Source: Clostridia bacterium (GTDB taxonomy: Bacteria; Bacillota; Clostridia; Christensenellales; CAG-138). Taken from it: 59,159 bases of DNA. The translations under genes and the position numbers were made by a program. Shown here in pieces: positions 67-10,041 of the stretch; the first letter of the stretch is position 1; each line of letters begins with the position of its first letter. The notes below the pieces were generated by a model that was not told the DNA's origin, did not search any database, and worked only from the letters and a program-made list of their open reading frames with translations. The stretch lies in NCBI GenBank assembly GCA_036804025.1, contig DAIRTE010000004.1:1-59159 (forward strand), in the 5' to 3' direction.

Positions 67-2007
67 CTATAAAACCGAAATCTTGAAATTGACCGTTTCT
101 CCAGTGGCCTCAATAGCTTCCTTCTGGGGTGCTTTGCAGAACAGTTCGCTGAGATTCGGAATCAGAAAGATTGCGGAGTAGTCCTCCAACTGCTGCGAAA
201 CGATGTCCAGCGTGGTCAACTTTGATAATTGCGCCAACGGCGTAAGGTCAATGTCCGGCGCGCAGAACACCAACAGATAGTTGAGCTGCGACAACGCTTC
301 AATGCCTTCCAGACTCGTAAACTGCGTGTCGAATATCGACAGTCTCGTGAGATTTGTTAATTTCAGAAAAGGCTTGAAATCGGGCGCCGATCCTCGATAA
401 TCCAGCGAGGTGAGCGAGGCAACCTGCGAGATGGTGTTGAGCTGCCGCTCGCCGACGTTGGAAACCGAAAGACTCTCCAAAGATGGCATGCCGGTCAGCA
501 ACGAATAGTCGTCGCAAAGCGAATCCTTGAGATACAGCGAGCGGAGCTCTAGACGCGCGATGGGCGAGAGATCCATCACACTGGTTCCGCTTACGTCGAG
601 TACGCGCAGGAGCGGGCACTCGCTGAGCGCGTTGATCTGCACCAACGGATTGTAGCCAACGTAGAGCTCGTTGAGATACGCCAGATCCTTCAGGGGCGAC
701 AGGTCGGAAATCTGGTTTCCGCCGAGCGCGAGGCGGGTGATCTGCATGCCGGTGAGCGGCGAAAGATCGGTAATGCTCTGATTGCACACGGCAAGATCGG
801 TCAAATTTCGAAATTTCGAAATATCCGCGAGCGTGCGAATCGTGCCGCTGGGGTCGGAAGTCCGATAGAGCGAGCGATACGTAATGTCGCTCCAATCCGG
901 GTATGTTTCCGTGCCAAAGAAGTAGAGCTTCGTGACCCGATCCAGATCGGCCTGCGTCAGCGGCGTTGTCGCGCTTATGCCGAGCTGGTTTCGCACAGCC
1001 TGTTCAATCTCCGGCGATTCAAACGTGACAACGGAGCTGGTTGCGACCGGGCTCGGTTTTGCGAGAGAAACGCTCGCTGCAACCGCCTGCTTTGAACTCC
1101 ATTGCTGCGGAAGCACGCCAACCGCGCCGAGCAGCAACGCGAGTCCAAATCCCGCCGCGAGGCCAACGCCCGTTCCGCGCAAAAACAACCGCTTGGGCAG
1201 CGATTGCGCCTTGGCGGCGAATCGCAAATCCGACTGCAATTGCCGGATGTTTGCGTACCGGCGCTCGGGATCAAACTGCGTGCAGGTTTCGATGACGCGC
1301 GCGAGCTTGCGGTTCTGCAGCGATGCTAAACCGTCCAGATCGTAGGAACCCGTACAGAAATAGAGCAACAGAACACCGGTGGAGTAGATGTCCGAGCGCT
1401 GATCGGTCTGCTTGTAGCCAAACTGTTCCGGCGCGGCGGTCGTTTGCGTGCCGAGGCAGACGGTGTCACTTCTGCGCTTGGGCTGGTAATGCCGCGCGGC
1501 GTCAAAGTCGATGAGCGCGAGCCCGTGCTCCCGCGTATAGATCAGGTTTTGCGGTTTGATGTCGCGATGGATCACCGGCGGATTCTGCCTATGCAGCATG
1601 CTCAACGTGTCGCAAAAACCGATCCCGATGCGAATCGTTTCCCGCTCGCTCAGCGGCCCGTATTGTTCGATATAGTCCGAAATGGGCGTGCCGGGGATAT
1701 AGCCGCGCAGAAAATACTCCGTGTGATCGTCCGCCTGATATAAAAGCGCTTTCGGAAACACCGGCGAATCCAGCGCGTCGAGGATTTGATACTCCCCAAG
1801 CAGGTTTCGGCCTGCGCGCTTAGCGGCGACCTTGAGAATGCTGAGCGAGCCGTCCGCCTTGTTTTTTACCAGAAAAGTGGAGGACGCCTCCGATCCGTGC
1901 AGGCAATCTACAAGCGTATACTGCTTGGCAATGCTGGGCGGCAGTGAGACGGAAGAATCCAAAACGACCTGATAATCCGCGAGAAACGACGAAAGCAGAT
2001 CTTCCAT
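67..2007 (-). CDS. Membrane-spanning Ser/Thr protein kinase with extracellular leucine-rich-repeat (internalin-type) domain
   Basis: ORF 67..2148 trimmed to the ATG at 2007 (MEDLLSS) because the upstream gene stops at 2018. Kinase motifs HRDIKPQN, DFD (in place of DFG) and TTAAPE. One TM helix (GVGLAAGFGLALLLGAVGV). The C-terminal ~300 aa are ~22-residue repeats of the LxxLxLxxNxIxDLSPL type. Confidence 0.9.
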   Translation of the reverse strand: MEDLLSSFLADYQVVLDSSVSLPPSIAKQYTLVDCLHGSEASSTFLVKNKADGSLSILKVAAKRAGRNLLGEYQILDALDSPVFPKALLYQADDHTEYFLRGYIPGTPISDYIEQYGPLSERETIRIGIGFCDTLSMLHRQNPPVIHRDIKPQNLIYTREHGLALIDFDAARHYQPKRRSDTVCLGTQTTAAPEQFGYKQTDQRSDIYSTGVLLLYFCTGSYDLDGLASLQNRKLARVIETCTQFDPERRYANIRQLQSDLRFAAKAQSLPKRLFLRGTGVGLAAGFGLALLLGAVGVLPQQWSSKQAVAASVSLAKPSPVATSSVVTFESPEIEQAVRNQLGISATTPLTQADLDRVTKLYFFGTETYPDWSDITYRSLYRTSDPSGTIRTLADISKFRNLTDLAVCNQSITDLSPLTGMQITRLALGGNQISDLSPLKDLAYLNELYVGYNPLVQINALSECPLLRVLDVSGTSVMDLSPIARLELRSLYLKDSLCDDYSLLTGMPSLESLSVSNVGERQLNTISQVASLTSLDYRGSAPDFKPFLKLTNLTRLSIFDTQFTSLEGIEALSQLNYLLVFCAPDIDLTPLAQLSKLTTLDIVSQQLEDYSAIFLIPNLSELFCKAPQKEAIEATGETVNFKISVL

Positions 2008-2017
2008 AGCTTGCCCC

Positions 2018-2455
2018 TTAGCCCAAAAGTTTCTCGCCGATTTGCTCCAGCAGAATCTCGGCGTCGATGACGTTGGTTTGATGTTGTATGCAGTAGATGA
2101 GCGCGGCATCCCGGCGATTTCTCGGATAAAGCTCGCCGCGCTGCGCAATTTTCAGCAGCCGCTGCGTCTCGTTTATCGTTAAACCAATGCCGAGCGCGAG
2201 GCGAATCAGCGCGTTTCGGCTGGGGTTTCGATATCCATTGAGAATCTGATAGCCGAGGGAATAGTTCAGGTTGGCGGCTTCCAACGCGCTTTGCTTTGAA
2301 ATGTTGTGCTGGGTCAGCATCTGTTGCAGATAGGCGGGGGTGCTGATGGACGGCAGGTCCTCCTCGTGCGCGGTTAAAAATTCCTCCAGCTGCTGTGTGT
2401 TTTGCAACAGTTGAAACAGTTCCTCGGTTGAGGCGGATTTCTTTTTGACTGCCAT
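2018..2455 (-). CDS. XRE-family helix-turn-helix protein, translationally close-coupled to the kinase
   Basis: HTH segment ISKQSALEAANLNYSLGYQILNGYRNPSRNALIRLALGIGL. Start moved to the ATG at 2455 (MAVKKK), preceded by GGGGGGAGAA. The stop lies 10 nt before the kinase ATG. Confidence 0.8.
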   Translation of the reverse strand: MAVKKKSASTEELFQLLQNTQQLEEFLTAHEEDLPSISTPAYLQQMLTQHNISKQSALEAANLNYSLGYQILNGYRNPSRNALIRLALGIGLTINETQRLLKIAQRGELYPRNRRDAALIYCIQHQTNVIDAEILLEQIGEKLLG

Positions 2456-2492
2456 GCGATTCTCCCCCCGGATCATCTGCCGAACTATCGAG

Positions 2493-2522
2493 ATAGTAAC
2501 ATTCGCCTGTTTATAATGTCAA
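2493..2522 (-). promoter_or_regulatory. Sigma-A type promoter for the HTH-kinase operon
   Basis: Minus strand: TTGACA (2517..2522), 18 nt spacer, TACTAT (2493..2498) preceded by TGT (extended -10). Confidence 0.6.
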
Positions 2523-2642
2523 CACACGTATGCATACATTTTGGATATTTTACGCAATTTGCACACCGAAATCTTTTGAAAAGTTCTATTATAATAGGAT
2601 TACGCTGTTTTACTGGAATCAGAAGTTCAATAGGAAATAATC

Positions 2643-2687
2643 AAAAAGAAGACAACGCCCGGCAAGAGTTCGCCAGACGTTGTCTTC
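2643..2687 (-). terminator. Rho-independent terminator after the 226-aa Nudix-like gene
   Basis: Minus strand: GAAGACAACG ... CGTTGTCTTC long hairpin (with inner CTGGC/GCCGG pairing) followed by TTTTTGATTATTT. Confidence 0.75.
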
Positions 2688-2763
2688 CCTTGGTTGGTTC
2701 GCTGTGACAGTATCGTTACAAACGTATGCGTGGCGTTCTCTACCGAAGGATGCGGCGCTGCGT

Positions 2764-3444
2764 CTATGTCAACCAATAGACAACGCTCGCAAGATAGGGG
2801 CTGACGTCGTCCCGAAAGTTGTGAACGTAGCTCTTCCCCCGTTCCATGGCGCCTTCGAGCGTGCCGAAATACTCGTATGTCGCGTCGTAGCTCCACTCGT
2901 CCGACCCTGCATAGCTGCCCGCGCCCGGGGCGGACCAGGGATCGGTGATGTGGATCGTATAATTACGAATTCCGGTGTAGTGGTGAAGAATCTGCTCGAC
3001 AACGGCGGCGTCCACGGCGTACGTTGGGTCGCCCGCCTGCAAAGCATCGAGCAGGGTTTGCGCGTCAATCCAATCGAACCGATCGGACGGTGCGTTCTTC
3101 AGATACGGCGAATACTGCGCCATGCCCAGCAACAGGTACACGCGGCAGAGCTCCCGATTTGGCCCCGTCGGCAGGTCGAAGCAGAGCAGGCACTCTTCCG
3201 GCTGCGTTTGTTCCAACTGCTCCGCGAGAAGCCGCGGCAATGCCTGTTCAAACGATTCGGCGGACGCGACCCGACCCGCGCAAGGCACGTCGAGCCGACC
3301 CTGCGCCGATTCATCGTTGGCGACGCGCTGGCGCAGCATCAGGGAGAAGCGCCCGTTCTCCGAAATCTCGCTGACGTACCAAACCTGAACCTGCTCCAGC
3401 CGGTAGGTGGAATCATCTTGCAGTTGAGTATTTTTCTTTTCCAT
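2764..3444 (-). CDS. Hypothetical protein with degenerate Nudix box
   Basis: 226-aa ORF with RBS AAAGGGGA. The segment GRVASAESFEQALPRLLAEQLE fits Nudix spacing Gx5Ex7REUxEE, but reads RL and EQ where RE and EE are expected. The C-terminal half matched nothing I recognise. Confidence 0.7.
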   Translation of the reverse strand: MEKKNTQLQDDSTYRLEQVQVWYVSEISENGRFSLMLRQRVANDESAQGRLDVPCAGRVASAESFEQALPRLLAEQLEQTQPEECLLCFDLPTGPNRELCRVYLLLGMAQYSPYLKNAPSDRFDWIDAQTLLDALQAGDPTYAVDAAVVEQILHHYTGIRNYTIHITDPWSAPGAGSYAGSDEWSYDATYEYFGTLEGAMERGKSYVHNFRDDVSPYLASVVYWLT

Positions 3445-3473
3445 ACGAATCCCCTTTCGAGCGTGAAGACGCT

Positions 3474-4592
3474 CTATTCGAGCATGTCGAGCAGTTCCGG
3501 CTCCTCCGACAGGCGCTTGAGTACGCGTTTCAGCCCGTCGTTGGCCTGCTCCGGATGCGCATCAACCTGACGAATCAGCTCGCCGAGCCGCCAAAACCGC
3601 CCGACATACGTCCGCGAGACCGACTCGCCAATGGAGTCGATCCAGTCGTCCTTGATGCGCACTTCACCCGGAATGTTGAGCAAATGCTGCGTCCCGTTGG
3701 TGTAGCGACAGAAGAATACCCAGGAAATCTCGTTGTTCGTTCCCTCCGCGTGCGCGCCGCGGTAGCGGTCGGTAAACCAGAGCGAGAGGTTCTCCTCCGG
3801 CTGGCTCGGGCTGACCAGCTCGCGCGCCAACTCCCGCCGCGCACAGTTCCAGAGTACGGGGTCAACCGGAATCGGCTTTCCCGTGTAGGTACCTTCCGCG
3901 TCCGAAGCGCTGCCAATGAGAGGAAAGTCCTCCTCGCGGACATGGCCGCCGAGAACGTCCAGCGCGGAGGCAACGGGGGAGGAATCGTCTCCCGCGCCGA
4001 GTTTATCCGCCTTGTCAACCACGAGGAAGGCGGGCTCGCCGGTCTTCGGATCGCGCTTGTAGACGACCAGAATCGACGTTGGGTGCAGCAGCCCTGCCTC
4101 GTGGAGCGCGCGCTTGGTTGGGTAAAACGCGAGCACATTGCCCGCCTCGTCCAGCGACGGAATGCGCGTTCGTTCCGGCTCCGGCTTTTTCTTTTTACGA
4201 CGCTTGAGGCTTTCTCCAAGTAATTCGTCCAGCAGCAGCAAACCGCGTGCCTGACGCATGCGATTGTTAAACTGGTTTCGCATGCGCCGCGCCGAGACCT
4301 CCGGAATACCCATCTTCTGAGCAATCTCTTTGTCTTTCAGCCCGGCGAATACAAGGTAGAGATAGCTCTTCTCCTTGGCGGTGAAGGCAAACACGCTGTC
4401 CGCGTTCAGCAGCAGGTCGAACTTCTCCTGTCTGCCGTGGCGGCTCGCGTGCTTCTTTTGCTGGTCGGTGGGCATCCGTTCGCCGCAGTAAATACAGATT
4501 TTCGCGCCGGACGCCGTACTCGTATCTTCCGCCTCATCGCCGCGAAAGCCGCTTTCCAGAATGTGAGTGCTATCAAAGTCGTATATTTGCAT
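3474..4592 (-). CDS. Zn-ribbon + LuxR/sigma-70-region-4-type HTH + Nudix-like domain protein (putative ligand-sensing regulator)
   Basis: ORF 3474..4610 opens with GTG. The ATG at 4592 (MQIYDF) has GGAG 10 nt upstream; alternative starts are 4601 and 4610. CxxC...HxxxH motif (ICIYCGERM...HASRH). HTH: LKDKEIAQKMGIPEVSARRMRNQFNNRMRQA. Nudix-like: LDVLGGHVREED, ~23-aa insert, RRELAREL. Confidence 0.8.
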   Translation of the reverse strand: MQIYDFDSTHILESGFRGDEAEDTSTASGAKICIYCGERMPTDQQKKHASRHGRQEKFDLLLNADSVFAFTAKEKSYLYLVFAGLKDKEIAQKMGIPEVSARRMRNQFNNRMRQARGLLLLDELLGESLKRRKKKKPEPERTRIPSLDEAGNVLAFYPTKRALHEAGLLHPTSILVVYKRDPKTGEPAFLVVDKADKLGAGDDSSPVASALDVLGGHVREEDFPLIGSASDAEGTYTGKPIPVDPVLWNCARRELARELVSPSQPEENLSLWFTDRYRGAHAEGTNNEISWVFFCRYTNGTQHLLNIPGEVRIKDDWIDSIGESVSRTYVGRFWRLGELIRQVDAHPEQANDGLKRVLKRLSEEPELLDMLE

Positions 4593-4672
4593 AAAGTCCA
4601 TACTCCGCACTTAATATTCGCGATTTTTTAACGTTCATTAAATATTTCGTGTGTAAATTACCATTCTGCCTA

Positions 4673-4701
4673 TTGACAGGTTGTTCACCCCGTGCTACCA
4701 T
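4673..4701 (+). promoter_or_regulatory. Promoter of the 369-aa Nudix-like gene
   Basis: TTGACA (4673..4678), 17 nt spacer, TACCAT (4696..4701) preceded by TGC (extended -10). Confidence 0.65.
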
Positions 4702-4732
4702 TCGAATTAAGAAATGTTCACTCTGTATGATC

Positions 4733-4761
4733 ATTATAACAACGACATTCAATTCAGTCAA
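4733..4761 (-). promoter_or_regulatory. Promoter of the HTH-Nudix-like gene
   Basis: Minus strand: TTGACT (4756..4761), 17 nt spacer, TATAAT (4733..4738) preceded by TGT (extended -10). Confidence 0.7.
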
Positions 4762-4786
4762 CGTTTTCTTTTCTGGTTTCTTCTAT

Positions 4787-4816
4787 TAAAAACCATGCAC
4801 CTAAAAACCATGTACC
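4787..4816 (+). repeat. Tandem 15-nt direct repeat in the leader of the 369-aa Nudix-like gene
   Basis: TAAAAACCATGCACC (4787..4801) is followed immediately by TAAAAACCATGTACC (4802..4816), with one mismatch. Confidence 0.9.
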
Positions 4817-4861
4817 GCGCTGCCATCAGACGATGGCGCTACAGAAAGGGAGGAATGATCG

Positions 4862-5971
4862 ATGGAACACAATTCGAATTCGAACGACAACTTTGGGTAT
4901 AGCGGCGCATGCCAGCACCTGTTTGCGAGCAACTCCAACGGCAGCGGAACCGGGCGCGTCGAGGTTTGGTGCGTGCGCTGCGGCGAGCAGGAGATTTACT
5001 ACGACGACACCGGAACGGTGCTCTACAGCGAGCTGGACCCGGACTTCGACAACAGCCGCTATACCGGCGTGATCCATACGCTGGAGGAGCTGAACGACTC
5101 CATTCGCGGGAATCACTTTTGCGAGCGGTATGCGGACGAGCAGAACGTTTGCCTCGTCTGCGGCAAACAGTTGGAGCCCAAGGAACCGGAGAAACCGGTC
5201 ACGCCGCCTCCGCCGAAAGCCGTACCCGCCGAGAAACTGTACATCGTCCAGAAAACCAAGCAGGGCTACGAAATCTGCGGGCTGGAAAAGCGCTCCGTTG
5301 CCGAACAAAAAGGACTGCGTCACCTGACGGTAATCATCGTTCCGTTTGTGGCAAGCGGGCCGGAACAGGGGCGCTGGATTGTCCACGACCGCACCGCAAA
5401 ACTCTGGGCAAAGAAGAAGGCGGCGGGCGCCTCCGCGAGCCTGAACCTCTTTGGCGGGCATTGCTCCGCGGACGAGGGGGCGATCAACCGCATTGGTACG
5501 CTCGTAACCATGGATATCTTCGACGTTGCGGCCGAGCGTGAGCTGGAGGAGGAGCTGCTCCGGCGGGGTACCGGACACAAGCTGGAGGTTTGGGAGAATT
5601 CCGAAGGCGCTTCCGGCAGCCGCGAGGCGGCAAGGTACGCGCACCTGCCGTTGATCCCCGTGGGAATCGTGACCTACTCCAGCGCGAGCAACTGCGAGGC
5701 GAGCTATCTGTATGCGCTGCCCGTTCCGGCGGCGGATGTGGACGCACTGATCGCGGCGGATAACTACACGCGCGGCGGCGAGGAGCGCGACATCGCGCTG
5801 CCGATACTGCGCATGCACGAAGAAGAACTCCGTAAGCTACACAAGAACAATTCTGATGTGGAAATCTGCGACGCGATTTCGCGCCTCTGGCTTGGCGAGA
5901 ACCGAGCCGCGCACAAAAAACTACAGCGCATGATTCGGCACTACTGCGCCGACAAGCAGACGAAGAAGTAG
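4862..5971 (+). CDS. Double Zn-ribbon + Pro-rich linker + Nudix-like domain protein
   Basis: RBS AAGGGAGGA. CxxC pairs (WCVRCGE, CLVCGKQ). Linker PKEPEKPVTPPPPKAVP. Nudix-like LNLFGGHCSADEG, 13-aa insert, ERELEEELL (REUxEE retained). Paralogous to the C-terminal domain of 3474..4592. Confidence 0.8.
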   Translation: MEHNSNSNDNFGYSGACQHLFASNSNGSGTGRVEVWCVRCGEQEIYYDDTGTVLYSELDPDFDNSRYTGVIHTLEELNDSIRGNHFCERYADEQNVCLVCGKQLEPKEPEKPVTPPPPKAVPAEKLYIVQKTKQGYEICGLEKRSVAEQKGLRHLTVIIVPFVASGPEQGRWIVHDRTAKLWAKKKAAGASASLNLFGGHCSADEGAINRIGTLVTMDIFDVAAERELEEELLRRGTGHKLEVWENSEGASGSREAARYAHLPLIPVGIVTYSSASNCEASYLYALPVPAADVDALIAADNYTRGGEERDIALPILRMHEEELRKLHKNNSDVEICDAISRLWLGENRAAHKKLQRMIRHYCADKQTKK

Positions 5972-6021
5972 AGCTCTTTCGAAGCCGCCGACCGACAAAA
6001 CAAGAACAAGACGCATTTGTG

Positions 6022-6063
6022 CACCCGCGAACGGAATGGGTTCGCGGGTGTTTTGTTGTTTTT
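6022..6063 (+). terminator. Rho-independent terminator
   Basis: CACCCGCGAAC (6022..6032), loop, GTTCGCGGGTG (6040..6050), followed by TTTTGTTGTTTTT. Confidence 0.85.
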
Positions 6064-6096
6064 GGTTGTTTGGTTTTCCGAGAAAAAAATAGATGC

Positions 6097-6125
6097 TTGA
6101 CAAGCCGTTTGATGTTTGGTATAAA
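6097..6125 (+). promoter_or_regulatory. Promoter upstream of the MBL-hydrolase / mgl-like genes
   Basis: TTGACA (6097..6102), 17 nt spacer ending in TGG, TATAAA (6120..6125). Confidence 0.65.
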
Positions 6126-6220
6126 TGGGTTGTCAGTTAGAAAACGAAATTACGTAACATACTAATTCATCTAAAAACGATCCATCACAATCATTCAAAT
6201 TTACTCAAGCATTCGAATTC

Positions 6221-6246
6221 AGCATCCAGCACAAGCATCCAGCACA
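6221..6246 (+). repeat. Perfect tandem 13-nt duplication in a 5' leader
   Basis: AGCATCCAGCACA occurs at 6221..6233 and again at 6234..6246. Confidence 0.9.
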
Positions 6247-6297
6247 AATAGAAAAGCGATCCTCTTTCGATTCTGTTACACCGGAGCATAAACCTGC

Positions 6298-7137
6298 ATG
6301 CGCGAAGAAAACACAACCATACACGGGCTGCTCTACGGCAGCTGGCTGATTCGCCCGAACCTTTGGGTTCTCTCGAACGGATGGCAGAATTTTCAATATC
6401 TGTTCGTCGGGGAGCGTCAGGCGGTGCTGATCGATTCCGGATATGGCGAGGGAAACATCCGCGCGGTGGTGGAGGAGAAGACGAACCTTCCGGTCATGGT
6501 GATCAATACGCACGGGCACTTCGATCATACCGGCGGAAACGGCTGCTGGCCGAAAGCCTGGATGGGGGAAGCGTCGCAGCTCGACTGCAAGCACGGGTTT
6601 GCGCCGATTCACGAACAATGGGCCGCGCAGAAGCCGTTTCCCGACTACGAAACCGGTGTGCTCGCGGATGGAACGCGCATTGACCTCGGCAACGAGGTGC
6701 TCGAGATCCTCGCGATTCCCGCGCACCACGACGGCAGCATCGCGATTCTGGCACAGAAAAACCGTTTCCTCTTTACGGGGGACGAATTCGAGAGCGGACA
6801 GGTGCTGATTCTCAAGCGCCGCTCCGATCCGGACTTTCTGCCGACCATTATGCGACACCGCGCAAACGCCGAACGGCTGCTCGCCCGAAGGAGCGAATAC
6901 GACGCGCTGTTTCCGGCGCACAACGGCTACCTGCTCGACCCGGATTGTTACCTGAACGACTTTATCGCGCTGGACGGCGAAATTCTCGCGGGAACGGCGC
7001 AGGCACAGCCGAACACGGTGGGGTTCAATTTTCCGGCGGACGCGGTCGCCAGCGGCTCGGTGTTTGGCGTGTTTGGCAAACAGATTCGCGTTTGCCACGG
7101 CGCGGCATCGATCGTATATCGAGATGATTCGGAATAA
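6298..7137 (+). CDS. MBL-fold metallo-hydrolase
   Basis: HxHxDH motif in VINTHGHFDHTGGNG; later IPAHHDGS and FPAHNG. 279 aa. Confidence 0.9.
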   Translation: MREENTTIHGLLYGSWLIRPNLWVLSNGWQNFQYLFVGERQAVLIDSGYGEGNIRAVVEEKTNLPVMVINTHGHFDHTGGNGCWPKAWMGEASQLDCKHGFAPIHEQWAAQKPFPDYETGVLADGTRIDLGNEVLEILAIPAHHDGSIAILAQKNRFLFTGDEFESGQVLILKRRSDPDFLPTIMRHRANAERLLARRSEYDALFPAHNGYLLDPDCYLNDFIALDGEILAGTAQAQPNTVGFNFPADAVASGSVFGVFGKQIRVCHGAASIVYRDDSE

Positions 7138-7221
7138 AACCTGACCGCCGACGGCGAAGCAACACGTTTTCAAGCAGCCCGATTGACTGCTGAAATACAT
7201 CAAAAATGGAGGAGAAACCGA

Positions 7222-8337
7222 ATGAAGAAAATCGTAGCTCTGGTTCTGGTTCTTGCCTTGTGCCTGTCGATGGTCGCTTGCAAGGCGCAGGCGCCAGCCG
7301 CAAGCACCGAACCCGCCGCCACCGAAGCAGCCGCCGCGGAAGCAACCACTGCGCCCGAGGAAGCCGCTGCTCCCGAGACCAAACCCGCAACCGCAGGCGT
7401 CTGCTGGTACAACTTCGCCGATACGTTTATCTCCAGCGCGCGTCAAACGCTGGAAGACGCGGCGGACGGCAGCGGCTGGCTGACCCTCTCCTCTGCGGAC
7501 AGCGCGTTCGACGTGCCGACGCAGGCCAACAACGTCAACCTCTTCCTCACGCAGGACGTCGACTACCTGCTCGTCAACAACCTCGACACCGCAGGCACCG
7601 CCAACCTGATTCAGCAGGCCAAGGACGCCGGCAAGACCATCATCTTCCTCAACACGAACACCCCGACGGACGAAGAGTTTGCCATGTATGACAACGTATG
7701 GTTCATCTCCTCGCTGGCGGATCAGTCCGGCACGATCATGGGCAACTATGCCGCGAAGTACTGGCAGGAGCATCCCGAAGCGGATCGCAACGGCAACGGC
7801 ATGCTGGACTACGTGATGCTGATCGGTTTCGAATGGCACTACGACTCCCTCGCGCGCCGCGACTACTCGATCAAGGCCGTGGAAGACGCGGGCATCAAGA
7901 CCAACAAGGTCTACGAAGCGGTCTGCAACTACAGCCGTGCGGACGCGATGAACACGATGCAGTCGATTCTGACCTCCAATGCGGACGACGTGGAAGCCGT
8001 CTTTGCGGCGAACGACGACATGGCCCTCGGCGCAATCGAAGCCATGAAGGCAGCCGGTTGGTTCGACGACGACGGCCCGAAAATCCCGGTTTGCAGCGTA
8101 GACGCAACCGCGGTTGGCTGCGAAGCCCTCACGGAAGGCACGCTGCTCGGCACCGCGCTGAACAACCCGGTTACGCTCGGCAATCTGGCTTATCGCCTCA
8201 TGTACTGCTTGCAGAACGGACTCGAAGTGAACGCGGAGAACCTCAACTACGACGCGGGCTTCAAGGTAGAAGGCCACCGCATCTGGATTGACTACATCCC
8301 GATCGACGCGAGCAACGTCGCAGACGCAACGTACTAA
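7222..8337 (+). CDS. mglB: Galactose/methyl-galactoside-type ABC transporter substrate-binding lipoprotein
   Basis: Start trimmed to MKKIVALVLVLALCLSMVAC (lipobox), RBS GGAGGAG. Ala/Thr/Pro linker. Blocks collinear with E. coli MglB: AANDDMALGAIEAMKAAG, GTALNNP and the Ca-loop-like ADRNGNGMLDY. Confidence 0.85.
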   Translation: MKKIVALVLVLALCLSMVACKAQAPAASTEPAATEAAAAEATTAPEEAAAPETKPATAGVCWYNFADTFISSARQTLEDAADGSGWLTLSSADSAFDVPTQANNVNLFLTQDVDYLLVNNLDTAGTANLIQQAKDAGKTIIFLNTNTPTDEEFAMYDNVWFISSLADQSGTIMGNYAAKYWQEHPEADRNGNGMLDYVMLIGFEWHYDSLARRDYSIKAVEDAGIKTNKVYEAVCNYSRADAMNTMQSILTSNADDVEAVFAANDDMALGAIEAMKAAGWFDDDGPKIPVCSVDATAVGCEALTEGTLLGTALNNPVTLGNLAYRLMYCLQNGLEVNAENLNYDAGFKVEGHRIWIDYIPIDASNVADATY

Positions 8338-8351
8338 CGCCGTCTCCCTCC

Positions 8352-8380
8352 GCCGGCGGCCCGGTACAAAGGCCGCCGGC
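8352..8380 (+). terminator. GC-rich intercistronic hairpin after the SBP gene (partial terminator or mRNA stabiliser)
   Basis: GCCGGCGGCC (8352..8361), 9-nt loop, GGCCGCCGGC (8371..8380), followed by TCTTCTTGTATT. Confidence 0.5.
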
Positions 8381-8496
8381 TCTTCTTGTATTCAAGCGCT
8401 CTTTGGGGCAAAATGAAACAAGAAGAATCGCACGGAAAACAGCAAGAAAGAGTGGCATCCGGCCATTTTCTTTCGAAGTGGAACAAGGAGAATAGC

Positions 8497-10041
8497 ATGG
8501 ACCAAAACAGTATAGTTCTGGAAATGCGGAACATCAGCAAGCAGTTTCCCGGCGTCAAAGCGCTGGACGGCGTGTCCATCACGGTGCGCGCGGGCAGCGT
8601 CCACGCGGTCATGGGCGAAAACGGCGCAGGAAAGTCGACGCTGATGAAATGCGCCTTCGGCATCTATCAGCCGGACGAAGGCGAAGTGCTCGTGAACGGA
8701 GCGCCCGTTCACTTCGTCGATACGCGTGACGCAATCGACGCGGGTATTTCGATGATCCACCAGGAGCTGCAGGTTGTTCGCAGTCGAAACGTCATGGAAA
8801 ACGTTTGGCTCGGCCGAATTCCCTACAAGCGCACGCTGGGGGTCAAATGGGTCGATTACAAAACGATGTACAAGAACACGCTGGAAATCTTTCAGGGGCT
8901 GGGAATTGAGATTGACCCCAAGGCAAATCTTTCGCGCCTTTCCGTTTCGTATTGCCAGCTCATCGAGATTGTTCGCGCGGTCTCAAGCGACGCAAAGGTC
9001 ATCATCATAGACGAGCCGACCTCGTCGCTTTCCGAGAACGAAGCGGAACTGTTATTTCGAATTATCCGCCAACTCACGGCAAAAGGCGTTGCAATTATTT
9101 ATATCTCACACAAGATCGAAGAGATTTTGCAGATTTCCGACGAGGTCACCATCATGCGCGACGGCACGAAGGTTGGCACCTGGCCGGCTAGCGAGCTCGA
9201 CAACCGCACGATCATCAACCGCATGGTCGGCCGCGAAATGACGAACCGTTTCCCGGCACGGGACTACGTGCGCGGGGACGTGCACCTCGAGATCAAGCAC
9301 CTTACCTCCGCCGACCCGAAGTCCTTTCAGGACGTCAGCTTCTCCGTTCGAAAGGGCGAAATCTTTGGCATCGGCGGCTTGATCGGCGCGCAGCGCACCG
9401 AGTTGATGGAGTCCATCTTCGGCCTGCGCGCGGTGAAGTCCGGCGAGATCGTCAAGGACGGAAAAACCCTGCGCCATACCTGCGCGCGGGACGCGATTCG
9501 AAACGGCTTTGCGCTGCTCACGGAAGAACGGCGCGAGACGGGCATTATCCCGATGCTCTCCATCGTGGAGAACATGGTCATCGCGAACCAGGCGATCAAT
9601 CGCAAGCGCTACACCGGAAAGATCGGCTTCCTGCGCTCGAAGAAGCGCAAGGAGGACACCGCGAAATACGTCGACGCGCTCTCGATCAAGACGCCGAGCA
9701 TTGCCACGCAGATCAAGTACCTCTCCGGCGGCAATCAGCAGAAGGTGGTTCTCTCGCGCTGGCTTTTGACCGAGCCGGACATTCTGATTCTGGACGAACC
9801 GACGCGCGGCATTGACATTGGCGCGAAGTACGAAATCTACTCGCTGCTGGTTGAAATGGCCAAACAGGGCAAGAGCATTCTGATCGTCTGCTCGGAGATG
9901 CCGGAGCTCATTGGCATGTCCGACCGCGTGATGGTTATGTGCGAAGGGCGCGTTTCGGGTTTCCTCGAAGGCGAGCAGATTCAGGATCAGGCGATTATGC
10001 ACCTCGCCAGCTCTTATCAGAATCCAGCGGAACAGAACTAG
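8497..10041 (+). CDS. mglA: Sugar ABC transporter ATP-binding protein, duplicated ABC cassette
   Basis: Start trimmed to MDQNSIVLEM, RBS AAGGAG. Walker A GENGAGKST, signatures LSVSYCQ and LSGGNQQK, Walker B IIIDEPTS and LILDEPTRGID. Confidence 0.9.
   Translation: MDQNSIVLEMRNISKQFPGVKALDGVSITVRAGSVHAVMGENGAGKSTLMKCAFGIYQPDEGEVLVNGAPVHFVDTRDAIDAGISMIHQELQVVRSRNVMENVWLGRIPYKRTLGVKWVDYKTMYKNTLEIFQGLGIEIDPKANLSRLSVSYCQLIEIVRAVSSDAKVIIIDEPTSSLSENEAELLFRIIRQLTAKGVAIIYISHKIEEILQISDEVTIMRDGTKVGTWPASELDNRTIINRMVGREMTNRFPARDYVRGDVHLEIKHLTSADPKSFQDVSFSVRKGEIFGIGGLIGAQRTELMESIFGLRAVKSGEIVKDGKTLRHTCARDAIRNGFALLTEERRETGIIPMLSIVENMVIANQAINRKRYTGKIGFLRSKKRKEDTAKYVDALSIKTPSIATQIKYLSGGNQQKVVLSRWLLTEPDILILDEPTRGIDIGAKYEIYSLLVEMAKQGKSILIVCSEMPELIGMSDRVMVMCEGRVSGFLEGEQIQDQAIMHLASSYQNPAEQN

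Follow-up and report, generated by a model that had tools for sequence, protein, structure and literature searches.

A stretch of 59,159 nucleotides from an uncultured, Christensenella-like Clostridia bacterium of gut or digester type (assembly GCA_036804025.1, contig DAIRTE010000004.1; the whole stretch is hereafter called the window, and coordinates without a locus number are positions in it) carries three clustered genes, A, B and C. According to the list of open reading frames (ORFs) and to their homologues, all three are real ORFs, and they encode highly diverged Nudix-fold proteins. The product of gene B combines a predicted DNA-binding part with a Nudix-like domain paralogous to that of C. 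In the reading that we put forward, B would be a one-component repressor of C and of its own B-A transcription unit, acting via a pair of operator-like sites, O1 and O2, with its Nudix-like domain as the sensor; taken as a whole, we regard this reading as evenly poised between right and wrong.

Gene C (369 amino acids (aa)) occupies positions 4862..5971 of the plus strand, while B (3474..4592; 372 aa from the ATG at 4592, the start used by its homologues) and A (2764..3444; 226 aa) lie on the minus strand. The B ORF reaches a GTG at 4610 (378 aa), and this 378-aa frame is the one in which B residues are numbered here; a GGAG sequence precedes the ATG by about 10 nt. As A begins 30 bp past the B stop codon, B and A probably form one operon. 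Intrinsic terminator prediction placed a hairpin with a 20-bp stem and a T run after A (2644..2691, minus strand), which would end the B-A unit, and another with a 12-bp stem and a T run 3´ of C (6021..6051, plus strand), and C is therefore taken to be monocistronic. A neighbouring unit, D-K, has a promoter-like site of its own, and the region resolves into the units [C], [B-A] and [D-K]. The closest public relatives were hypothetical proteins of a Christensenella sp. metagenome-assembled genome (MAG), with 94% identity, and no homologue supported the long ORFs seen on the opposite strand in this 56% G+C DNA.

That all three proteins adopt a Nudix fold, as a preliminary description of this DNA had proposed, is in our view nearly certain, and all three were placed in the YfcD/IDI-like Nudix branch, A by profile search and B and C by predicted structures. 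AlphaFold models of B and C, built on family alignments, reached pLDDT values of 82 and 88, respectively, and in both cases the top Foldseek match was Escherichia coli YfcD (2fkb; E 2e-6 and TM-target 0.66 for B, E 4e-6 and TM-target 0.73 for C). Further matches of the two models were IDI, Ap4A and ADP-ribose hydrolases, MutT and the Nudix domain of NrtR, the Foldseek probability being 1.00 for YfcD, IDI, the Ap4A/ADP-ribose hydrolases and MutT. For A, the family profile searched against the PDB matched DR0079 (E 7e-6), YfcD (1e-3) and the isopentenyl diphosphate isomerases (IDI). Sequence-profile PDB searches with B and C yielded no Nudix match, their fold being seen by structure prediction alone. 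Against the Pfam NUDIX model (PF00293; gathering threshold, 21.1 bits), A scored 13.5 bits, below the threshold, and B and C gave no match; at E<0.1, the model found 5 of the 22 B members and 2 of the 45 C members. Scans of A, B and C with NCBIfam, PADLOC and PHROGs returned no useful match, and the B/C protein family has neither a Pfam nor an NCBIfam model. None of the three proteins fits the canonical Nudix box (GX5EX7REUXEEXGU at canonical spacing, with all glutamates of REx2EE); the altered boxes that had been reported for them are present as quoted, as a check of the residue positions showed.

The same description had treated the three proteins as paralogues, which holds for two of them. 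B and C were clearly homologous by hhalign (95%, E 2e-8, over B155-327 and C132-304), and the C-family HMM detected B proteins at about 5e-8. The hhalign comparisons of A with B and of A with C were not significant, and A is a clade-mate of B and C but no close paralogue. No significant match came from BLASTP comparisons of A, B and C with one another, and profiles were required. In a MAFFT alignment with E. coli YfcD and Idi, B and C shared the H..G..H element (H170/H176 in B; E148/H154 in C), the GGH motif, the Nudix helix and the NxE strand (N292/E294 in B; N277/E279 in C; E114/E116 in IDI). We take the metal ligands of E. coli IDI to be H25, H32, H69, E114 and E116, and its catalytic residues to be C67 and E116. 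At the metal positions, the putative equivalents in this sequence alignment were H170, H176, H223, N292 and E294 in B, and E148, H154, H200, N277 and E279 in C. The position of the catalytic Cys67 is occupied by Gly in both proteins and, because this cysteine is absent, neither B nor C is an IDI.

The domain order of B is a C2H2-like finger, a predicted LuxR/GerE-type helix-turn-helix (HTH), a long helix, the Nudix-like domain and C-terminal helices. The Nudix-like domain (residues ~150-341; ~3588-4163, minus strand) was delimited by the AlphaFold model, Foldseek and homology to C. The finger (residues 36-58; ~4437-4505, minus strand) was delimited by conserved residues and the model: C39, C42, H54 and H58 (CxxC-x11-H-x3-H) are invariant, and the modelled strands 36-39 and 45-47 and helix 48-55 form a beta-beta-alpha unit. 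Searches with it returned weak matches only, to Kaiso fingers (E 0.25) and zf-UBP, and we describe it as a putative metal site. Cys/His motifs had been reported at the N-termini of both B and C, and they are indeed there; that of B is a C2H2-like finger rather than the zinc ribbon originally suggested.

The HTH of B (residues 76-122; ~4245-4385, minus strand) was assigned from sub-threshold matches and the model. In Pfam, the best matches were HTH_23 (0.01), GerE (0.025; PF00196, 14.6 bits against a gathering threshold of 23.5) and Sigma70_r4_2 (0.096), all below their thresholds, and a PHROG sigma factor model matched at 6e-4. Among the 22 B members, sub-threshold matches were to GerE in 6, to Sigma70_r4_2 in 6 and to HTH_23 in 9. 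When a profile of this domain was compared with the PDB, it met LuxR-family HTHs only (LuxR/NarL/StyR/DevR; E 0.018-1), and the segment FTAKEKSYLYLVFAGLKDKEIAQKMGIPEVSARRM aligned with the HTHs of StyR, NarL, DesR and DevR. The model contains three consecutive helices, at 78-88, 93-100 and 104-135. The recognition helix, I-P-x-V-S-A-R-R-M, was invariant in 22/22 B proteins, which span 46-94% identity. We consider it quite probable that B binds DNA. The possibility that B is a sigma factor, raised by the Sigma70_r4_2 and PHROG matches, was rejected, a region-4-like HTH alone being present.

Homologues were sought in other genomes, whose loci are designated by L numbers. A C profile found 117 representatives (50% identity clusters) in 1.84 billion proteins, 46 of them at E<1e-30. 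A GTDB scan covering one genome per species gave 20 loci, nearly all in Clostridia MAGs, from Christensenellaceae, Oscillospiraceae/Ruminococcaceae, Anaerofustis, Syntrophomonas and Defluviitaleaceae. A B-like gene, encoding an HTH and a Nudix-like domain, adjoins the C-like gene in the window, L005, L006, L007 (=L001), L008, L002, L009, L011 (=L003/L004), L023 and L024, and likewise in the metagenome contigs L032, L045 and L055; the divergent arrangement of the B and C genes is kept in the window, L005, L006, L007, L008, L002, L032, L045 and L055. C-like genes stand alone in L013-L020 and L022, and in three of these (L016, L018 and L022) the neighbours are housekeeping genes with no common theme. 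Gene A follows B in Christensenellaceae loci only. In L002, where B is 45% identical, a different YfcD-like protein of 227 aa is encoded directly after the C-like gene and passes the PF00293 threshold with 22.3 bits, so a three-Nudix set recurs there in another arrangement. Neither a tblastn search with C of phage and plasmid collections nor one with B of a plasmid collection found relatives.

Co-location in related genomes had been named beforehand as a test of the preliminary description, and B-like/C-like pairs do recur in other species. Since the arrangement recurs, the clustering of A, B and C is not due to chance. A fortuitous assembly of three unrelated, fast-evolving Nudix genes with no shared regulation could appeal to the fact that A is not detectably nearer to B and C than to other Nudix proteins, and to the several B/C loci without A. 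We find it barely conceivable, given that the divergent B/C pair recurs down to 25-45% identity, that a different YfcD-like PF00293 protein adjoins the C-like gene in L002 and that the operator pair described below is kept across species.

Two promoters that face each other were predicted between B and C by a consensus scan. That of C (4673..4701, plus strand) reads TTGACA, 17 nt, TACCAT, with a TG before the second hexamer, and with its 17-nt spacer it is kept in L007 and other loci. That of the B-A unit (4733..4761, minus strand) reads TTGACT, 17 nt, TATAAT (11/12 matches, with TG); its -35 TTGAC, 17-nt spacer and -10 TATAAT/TATTAT are kept in L007, L008 and L002. The predicted transcripts overlap by about 19 nt (4708-4726). 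By cross-locus comparison, we identified within this region an operator-like site, O1 (GTTCACCCCGT; 4683..4693, plus strand), in the spacer of the C promoter, and a direct repeat of it 33 bp further on, O2 (GTTCACTCTGT; 4716..4726, plus strand), which follows immediately on the -10 of the B-A promoter and takes up approximately positions +1 to +11 of it. These are classical repressor positions (promoter spacer; ~+1 to +11).

The 59-kb window has exactly two copies of the corresponding 11-mer, GTTCRCYCYGT, at 4683 and 4716. The exact pair, in the same orientation and 32-34 bp apart, was found in the window and in L005, L006, L007, L008, L002, L032, L045 and L055, that is, in all nine loci whose B is at least 45% identical, while the flanking intergenic DNA has diverged. 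In every locus that bears the pair, copy 1 lies between a TTGACA-like -35 and the -10 towards C, and copy 2 abuts the B-ward -10. The 11-mer is not a promoter element, because its copies share their orientation while the promoters oppose each other. It is absent from the loci of distant B-likes with another recognition helix (L009, L011, L023 and L024). Besides B, there is one further HTH protein nearby, D, and no gene for it was seen in those parts of L007 (=L001), L002 and L008 that were fetched, three loci that keep the sites. The evidence for B as the binder of O1 and O2 is correlative, namely an invariant helix and an 11-mer that tracks B. The proposal that the HTH member controls its paralogues gains from these comparisons, as an operator-like pair overlaps both predicted promoters wherever a close B homologue occurs; for action of B through O1 and O2 in particular, the scales tip slightly in favour.

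A second pair was observed in L002 (5480-5560, minus strand), consisting of GTTCGCTCTGT, about 34 bp and GTTCGCTCTGA, with a single mismatch in one copy and each copy adjoining a -10-like hexamer. It precedes a 93-aa gene of the B/C cluster, which stands in a run of unknown genes next to an integrase and transposases. This pair possibly represents an extended regulon of the B-type regulator.

In the DNA between B and C, control by a riboswitch or leader was also considered and dropped: an Rfam scan of 1900-6400 gave chance matches below threshold only, and the predicted 154-nt C leader folded no better than shuffled sequence (z -1.06). Within this leader, at 4787-4816 (plus strand), we noted a 15-nt tandem duplication (TAAAAACCATGCACC / TAAAAACCATGTACC), which is recent, as L005 and L006 carry a single copy.

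Gene C encodes two Cys/His modules, a proline-rich linker, a YfcD/IDI-like Nudix-fold domain (residues ~124-318; ~5231-5815, plus strand; AlphaFold model and Foldseek) and a C-terminal helical extension that bears an EICDAISRLW motif. The predicted zinc modules (residues 17-100; ~4910-5161, plus strand) were recognized by their conserved residues, C17(variable)/H19/C37/C40 and H85/C87/C97/C100, which are invariant wherever the N-terminal part exists, except for C17 (14/28); many C homologues are forms of about 250 aa without these modules. Altogether, 44 homologues of C were found, some of them labelled 'MutT NUDIX family' by JGI. The box of C is split, with G198 G199 H200 CSAD E205, then 20 residues (13 extra), then E225 R226 E227 LE E230 E231 L. 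Across the family of 45 proteins, E227 and E231 are invariant and R226 (40/45) and E230 (42/45) nearly so; H154 and GGH198-200 are likewise invariant, and N277 and E279 near-invariant. As the R and E residues of the Nudix helix are kept across the family, C is probably an active, metal-binding enzyme despite its insert.

The box of B is split as well, reading G221 G222 H223 VREE D228, 29 residues, and R258 R259 E260 LA R263 E264 L, with a loop insert of 22-23 residues beyond the canonical spacing. In the 22 B proteins, H170, H176, GGH221-223, R259, E260, E264, N292 and E294 are invariant. The helix of the Christensenellaceae B branch, R259 E260 .. R263 E264 (RELxREL), contains a Glu-to-Arg change that is kept in 22/22, while distant B-likes retain RELNEEL, REFLEEV or REIIEE. 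A catalytically impaired sensor, as was first suggested for this set, therefore agrees in part with these residues: A is degenerate and this B partly so, but C and the distant B-likes keep RE/EE.

These patterns can also be read in another way, with A, B and C as enzymes of one small pathway on a nucleotide or isoprenoid diphosphate, B being bifunctional or mainly an enzyme and some other factor binding the 11-mers. The Nudix-helix glutamates retained by C and the REx2EE of the distant B-likes would fit such a pathway, as would the alignment of the B residues H,H,H,N,E and the C residues E,H,H,N,E with the IDI metal site, and in L002, L009, L024 and L014 there are phosphoesterase genes of the PHP or calcineurin type in the vicinity of C-like or B-like genes. 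Moreover, enzymatic activity is found in some of those NrtR members whose signature is intact (PMC2330246). The finger and HTH module of B is nevertheless invariant, which points to DNA binding, and the operator pair tracks B and no other regulator; the conserved Glu-to-Arg change (RELxREL) of Christensenellaceae B and the lack of two of three glutamates in A are further points against a purely enzymatic set, which we rate as rather unlikely.

Returning to B as a ligand-controlled repressor, the following course of events would be consistent with the data. The finger and the LuxR-type HTH of B would recognize the direct repeats O1 and O2, which lie on one face of the DNA because they are 33 bp apart. 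Many Nudix proteins are dimers, and two B subunits would probably be joined through the Nudix-like domain. Bound B would shut both facing promoters, which would provide autoregulation together with control of C and A. The Nudix-like domain of B, a paralogue of the C domain with the same pocket residues, would act as the sensor, and B would leave its sites once this domain had taken up a small phosphorylated ligand, for which the substrate or product of C is the likeliest candidate. This release would induce C (and A), and C, perhaps with A, would then remove the ligand. What the comparisons show is the folds, the paralogy of B and C, the domain order, the synteny and the conserved operator-like pair with its place relative to promoter-like hexamers; from these we infer B as the binder, repression, ligand release and the nature of the ligand. 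That the effector is a substrate or product of C is tentative and, on balance, doubtful. Isoprenoid diphosphates are just as possible as ligands as the nucleotide or nucleotide sugar first suggested, because the closest structural relatives are YfcD and IDI and not the ADP-ribose pyrophosphatases.

Several observations weigh against this repressor model. The positions of both promoters come from a consensus scan alone, and no HTH match of B reaches the curated thresholds, the best E values being 0.01-0.025 (Pfam) and 0.018 (PDB). The usual targets of LuxR-type regulators are inverted repeats, as opposed to the direct repeats 33 bp apart found here. About half of the C-like genes elsewhere have no B-like neighbour, and C thus occurs independently of B. 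Since distant B-likes have a full REx2EE, B-type proteins may be enzymes in addition to, or instead of, sensors. Finally, in a metagenome scan for the 11-mer pair, 27/30 hits did not adjoin B, C or A; 3/30 contigs carry B, C and A, and most of those others that were read consist of tandem repeats of whole 33-45-bp units. The scan revealed no extra regulon members. The 11-mer pair by itself is therefore not diagnostic, and the evidence lies in its conserved placement within diverged promoters beside B.

Among known systems, NrtR is the obvious comparison. It consists of an N-terminal Nudix domain followed by a C-terminal winged HTH, with the Nudix domain as sensor, and it is freed from DNA by ADP-ribose (PMC2330246). 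Like NrtR, B would be a one-component regulator that unites a diverged Nudix domain with a DNA-binding domain and is predicted to control its own neighbourhood; the Nudix signature is perturbed in many NrtR members as well, and the NrtR Nudix domain was among the Foldseek matches of B (3gz8, E 4e-4). The inverted order noted in the preliminary description was corroborated when the NrtR order was checked against the same source: in B, the DNA-binding part comes first. B also differs from NrtR in having a LuxR/GerE-like HTH behind a C2H2-like finger rather than a C-terminal winged HTH, in its YfcD/IDI-like Nudix domain with a 22-23-aa insert, where NrtR belongs to the ADP-ribose pyrophosphatase branch (COG1051), and in its predicted operator, a pair of direct 11-mers. 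Whereas the NrtR regulon comprises NAD-metabolism (or pentose) genes, there are none for NAD metabolism near B, the window neighbours of A, B and C being Nudix relatives, an XRE-like protein, a kinase and an ABC transporter. As B departs from the definition of NrtR in domain order, HTH type, Nudix clade and regulon alike, it is no NrtR member and looks like an independent fusion.

To our knowledge, Nudix sensors in transcription factors are known essentially from NrtR alone. Our literature search found no description of a LuxR-HTH-Nudix architecture, and in a survey of ADP-ribose conflict systems, Nudix-HTH regulators appear solely in connection with NrtR-type factors (PMC9503650). In comparison with the GerE-type HTH effector domains of the LuxR/FixJ/NarL kind, the FTAKEKSYLYLVFAGLKDKEIAQKMGIPEVSARRM pattern of B aligns with the HTHs named above and coincides with the three modelled helices; B differs from these proteins in lacking a receiver or autoinducer domain, in scoring below the family thresholds, in a third helix that extends into one of about 30 residues and in predicted sites that are direct repeats. 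YfcD (2fkb), DR0079 (1q27) and IDI provided the best matches (YfcD for the structures of B and C; DR0079, YfcD and IDI for the profile of A), and B and C have in common with them the N-terminal H..G..H strand and the NxE strand, with GGH where IDI has CGH. They depart from these proteins by an insert of 13-23 aa between GGH and the Nudix helix, by extra N-terminal domains and C-terminal helices, and by falling below the Pfam NUDIX threshold.

Gene A encodes a degenerate YfcD/DR0079-like Nudix domain (residues ~18-150; 2995-3393, minus strand), recognized by its PDB profile matches and its RL..EQ box, and a C-terminal domain of undescribed type (residues 158-226; 2767-2973, minus strand), delimited by conservation. 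The box reads G57-x5-E63-x7-R71 L72 .. E75 Q76, so that in A and its close relatives two of the three box glutamates are lost. In distant A homologues with 40-43% identity, including P0077 and P0078, PF00293 is present and the box, GHVAAGDTFYSAALRELDEELG, is near-canonical. Conservation is far higher in the last 70 residues of A (YTIHITDPWSAPGAGSYAGSDEW...SPYLASVVYWLT) than in the Nudix part, and these residues remain almost invariant down to 40% overall identity. The C-terminal domain had no match in Pfam, NCBIfam, PDB chains or viral contigs; A is a fusion of a decaying Nudix domain with an undescribed one.

Beyond the terminator that follows A lies the D-K unit (67..2476, minus strand), assigned from ORFs and domain matches and equipped with a separate promoter-like site (2493-2522). 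It comprises D (2018-2476), which encodes an XRE-like HTH protein of 152 aa, and K (ORF 67-2148), which encodes a Hanks-type Ser/Thr kinase containing C-terminal leucine-rich repeats (LRRs) and a hydrophobic stretch that probably spans the membrane; the two ORFs overlap or abut. In PADLOC, K is recognized by the PD-T4-6 kinase models (E 1e-29), for which general resemblance among kinases is the probable cause. A recurrent link of the cluster to a Ser/Thr kinase unit had been overlooked in the earlier work. In L003/L004/L011, a D-like gene and a gene for a 1286-aa glycosyltransferase-kinase-propeller protein flank the B-like/C-like pair; L011 belongs to an Oscillospiraceae or Fastidiosipilaceae genome whose C and B are 48% and 25% identical, respectively. 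In the Anaerofustis-type loci L013-L015, AAA/FtsH-like, LRR and kinase genes stand directly upstream of the C-like gene. There, one strand of ~2650-9770 encodes a 1169-aa double-AAA protein with Peptidase_M41, a 519-aa LRR protein and a further protein, of 625 aa, that ends in a kinase domain, and the C-like gene at ~9920 is followed by four conserved genes of unknown function. The parts of L007, L008 and L002 that were fetched showed no kinase gene, nor did most stand-alone C-like loci, and the link of Ser/Thr kinases to the B/C genes is suggestive.

One interpretation of this neighbourhood joins the Nudix trio with the XRE-like D and the membrane LRR kinase K in a larger cassette for signalling or conflict. 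The kinase would respond to a cue from outside, and B, C and A would either be phosphorylation targets or produce, detect or degrade a nucleotide-type signal. Kinase genes do lie near C-like genes in three separate lineages, with differing architectures (the window; L003/L011; L013-L015), L002 adjoins an integrase and transposases, and the PADLOC match of K would point the same way if it were not one of generic kinase similarity. A, B, C and D themselves have no PADLOC match, and phage and plasmid collections (both for C; plasmids for B) hold no relatives. In addition, D-K has a promoter-like site of its own, a strong terminator separates it from B-A, and it has no O site; with the kinase missing from the fetched parts of L007, L008 and L002 and from most stand-alone C-like loci, we judge this interpretation improbable.

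Other genes recur around the B/C loci. Small Cys-rich proteins with a repeated H-x-W-x-x-C-x-C-x-x-C(G) unit adjoin C-like genes in at least six loci (L008 6035-6230; L012 333; L013-L015 ~11000; L024 2739-3060); the unit resembles the N-terminal Cys/His modules of C, and none is present in the window. In two distant genomes, a VTC gene (PF09359), a DUF4956 gene and a CotH or Cthe_2159 gene are no more than 1-3 kb away from the B/C genes (L001 10176-13408; L003/L004 8929-12272), the corresponding side of the window containing other genes or lying beyond its edge. A conserved protein of 212-220 aa, in which a PHP (metal-dependent phosphoesterase) signature is faintly recognizable, is encoded repeatedly in the vicinity of B-like or C-like genes (L002 842-1486; L009 1802-2440; L024 6768-7430, directly before the C-like gene), and MraZ-like domain proteins were likewise met more than once (L002 352-831; L021 1108-2148).

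In its widest form, for which we see little likelihood, B, C and A would constitute, together with D and K, an undescribed signalling cassette of anaerobic Clostridia, in which a Nudix-derived sensor-regulator and a paralogous hydrolase set the level of a small phosphorylated signal, either a nucleotide derivative or an isoprenoid diphosphate. If so, a regulatory function would for the first time be assigned to the YfcD/IDI-like branch, and the 'split-box' domain with its insert would represent a new family of ligand-binding domains. If B is a second independent fusion, the conversion of a Nudix enzyme into a ligand sensor would have taken place more than once. The locus offers a ready test system, with a regulator, B, a predicted operator pair, facing promoters and a probably active paralogous enzyme, C, whose substrate is the obvious candidate effector for B. 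It would also open a first way into the function of the YfcD-like Nudix branch, which is poorly understood, and of the B/C family itself, which is rare and confined to uncultured gut and digester Clostridia.

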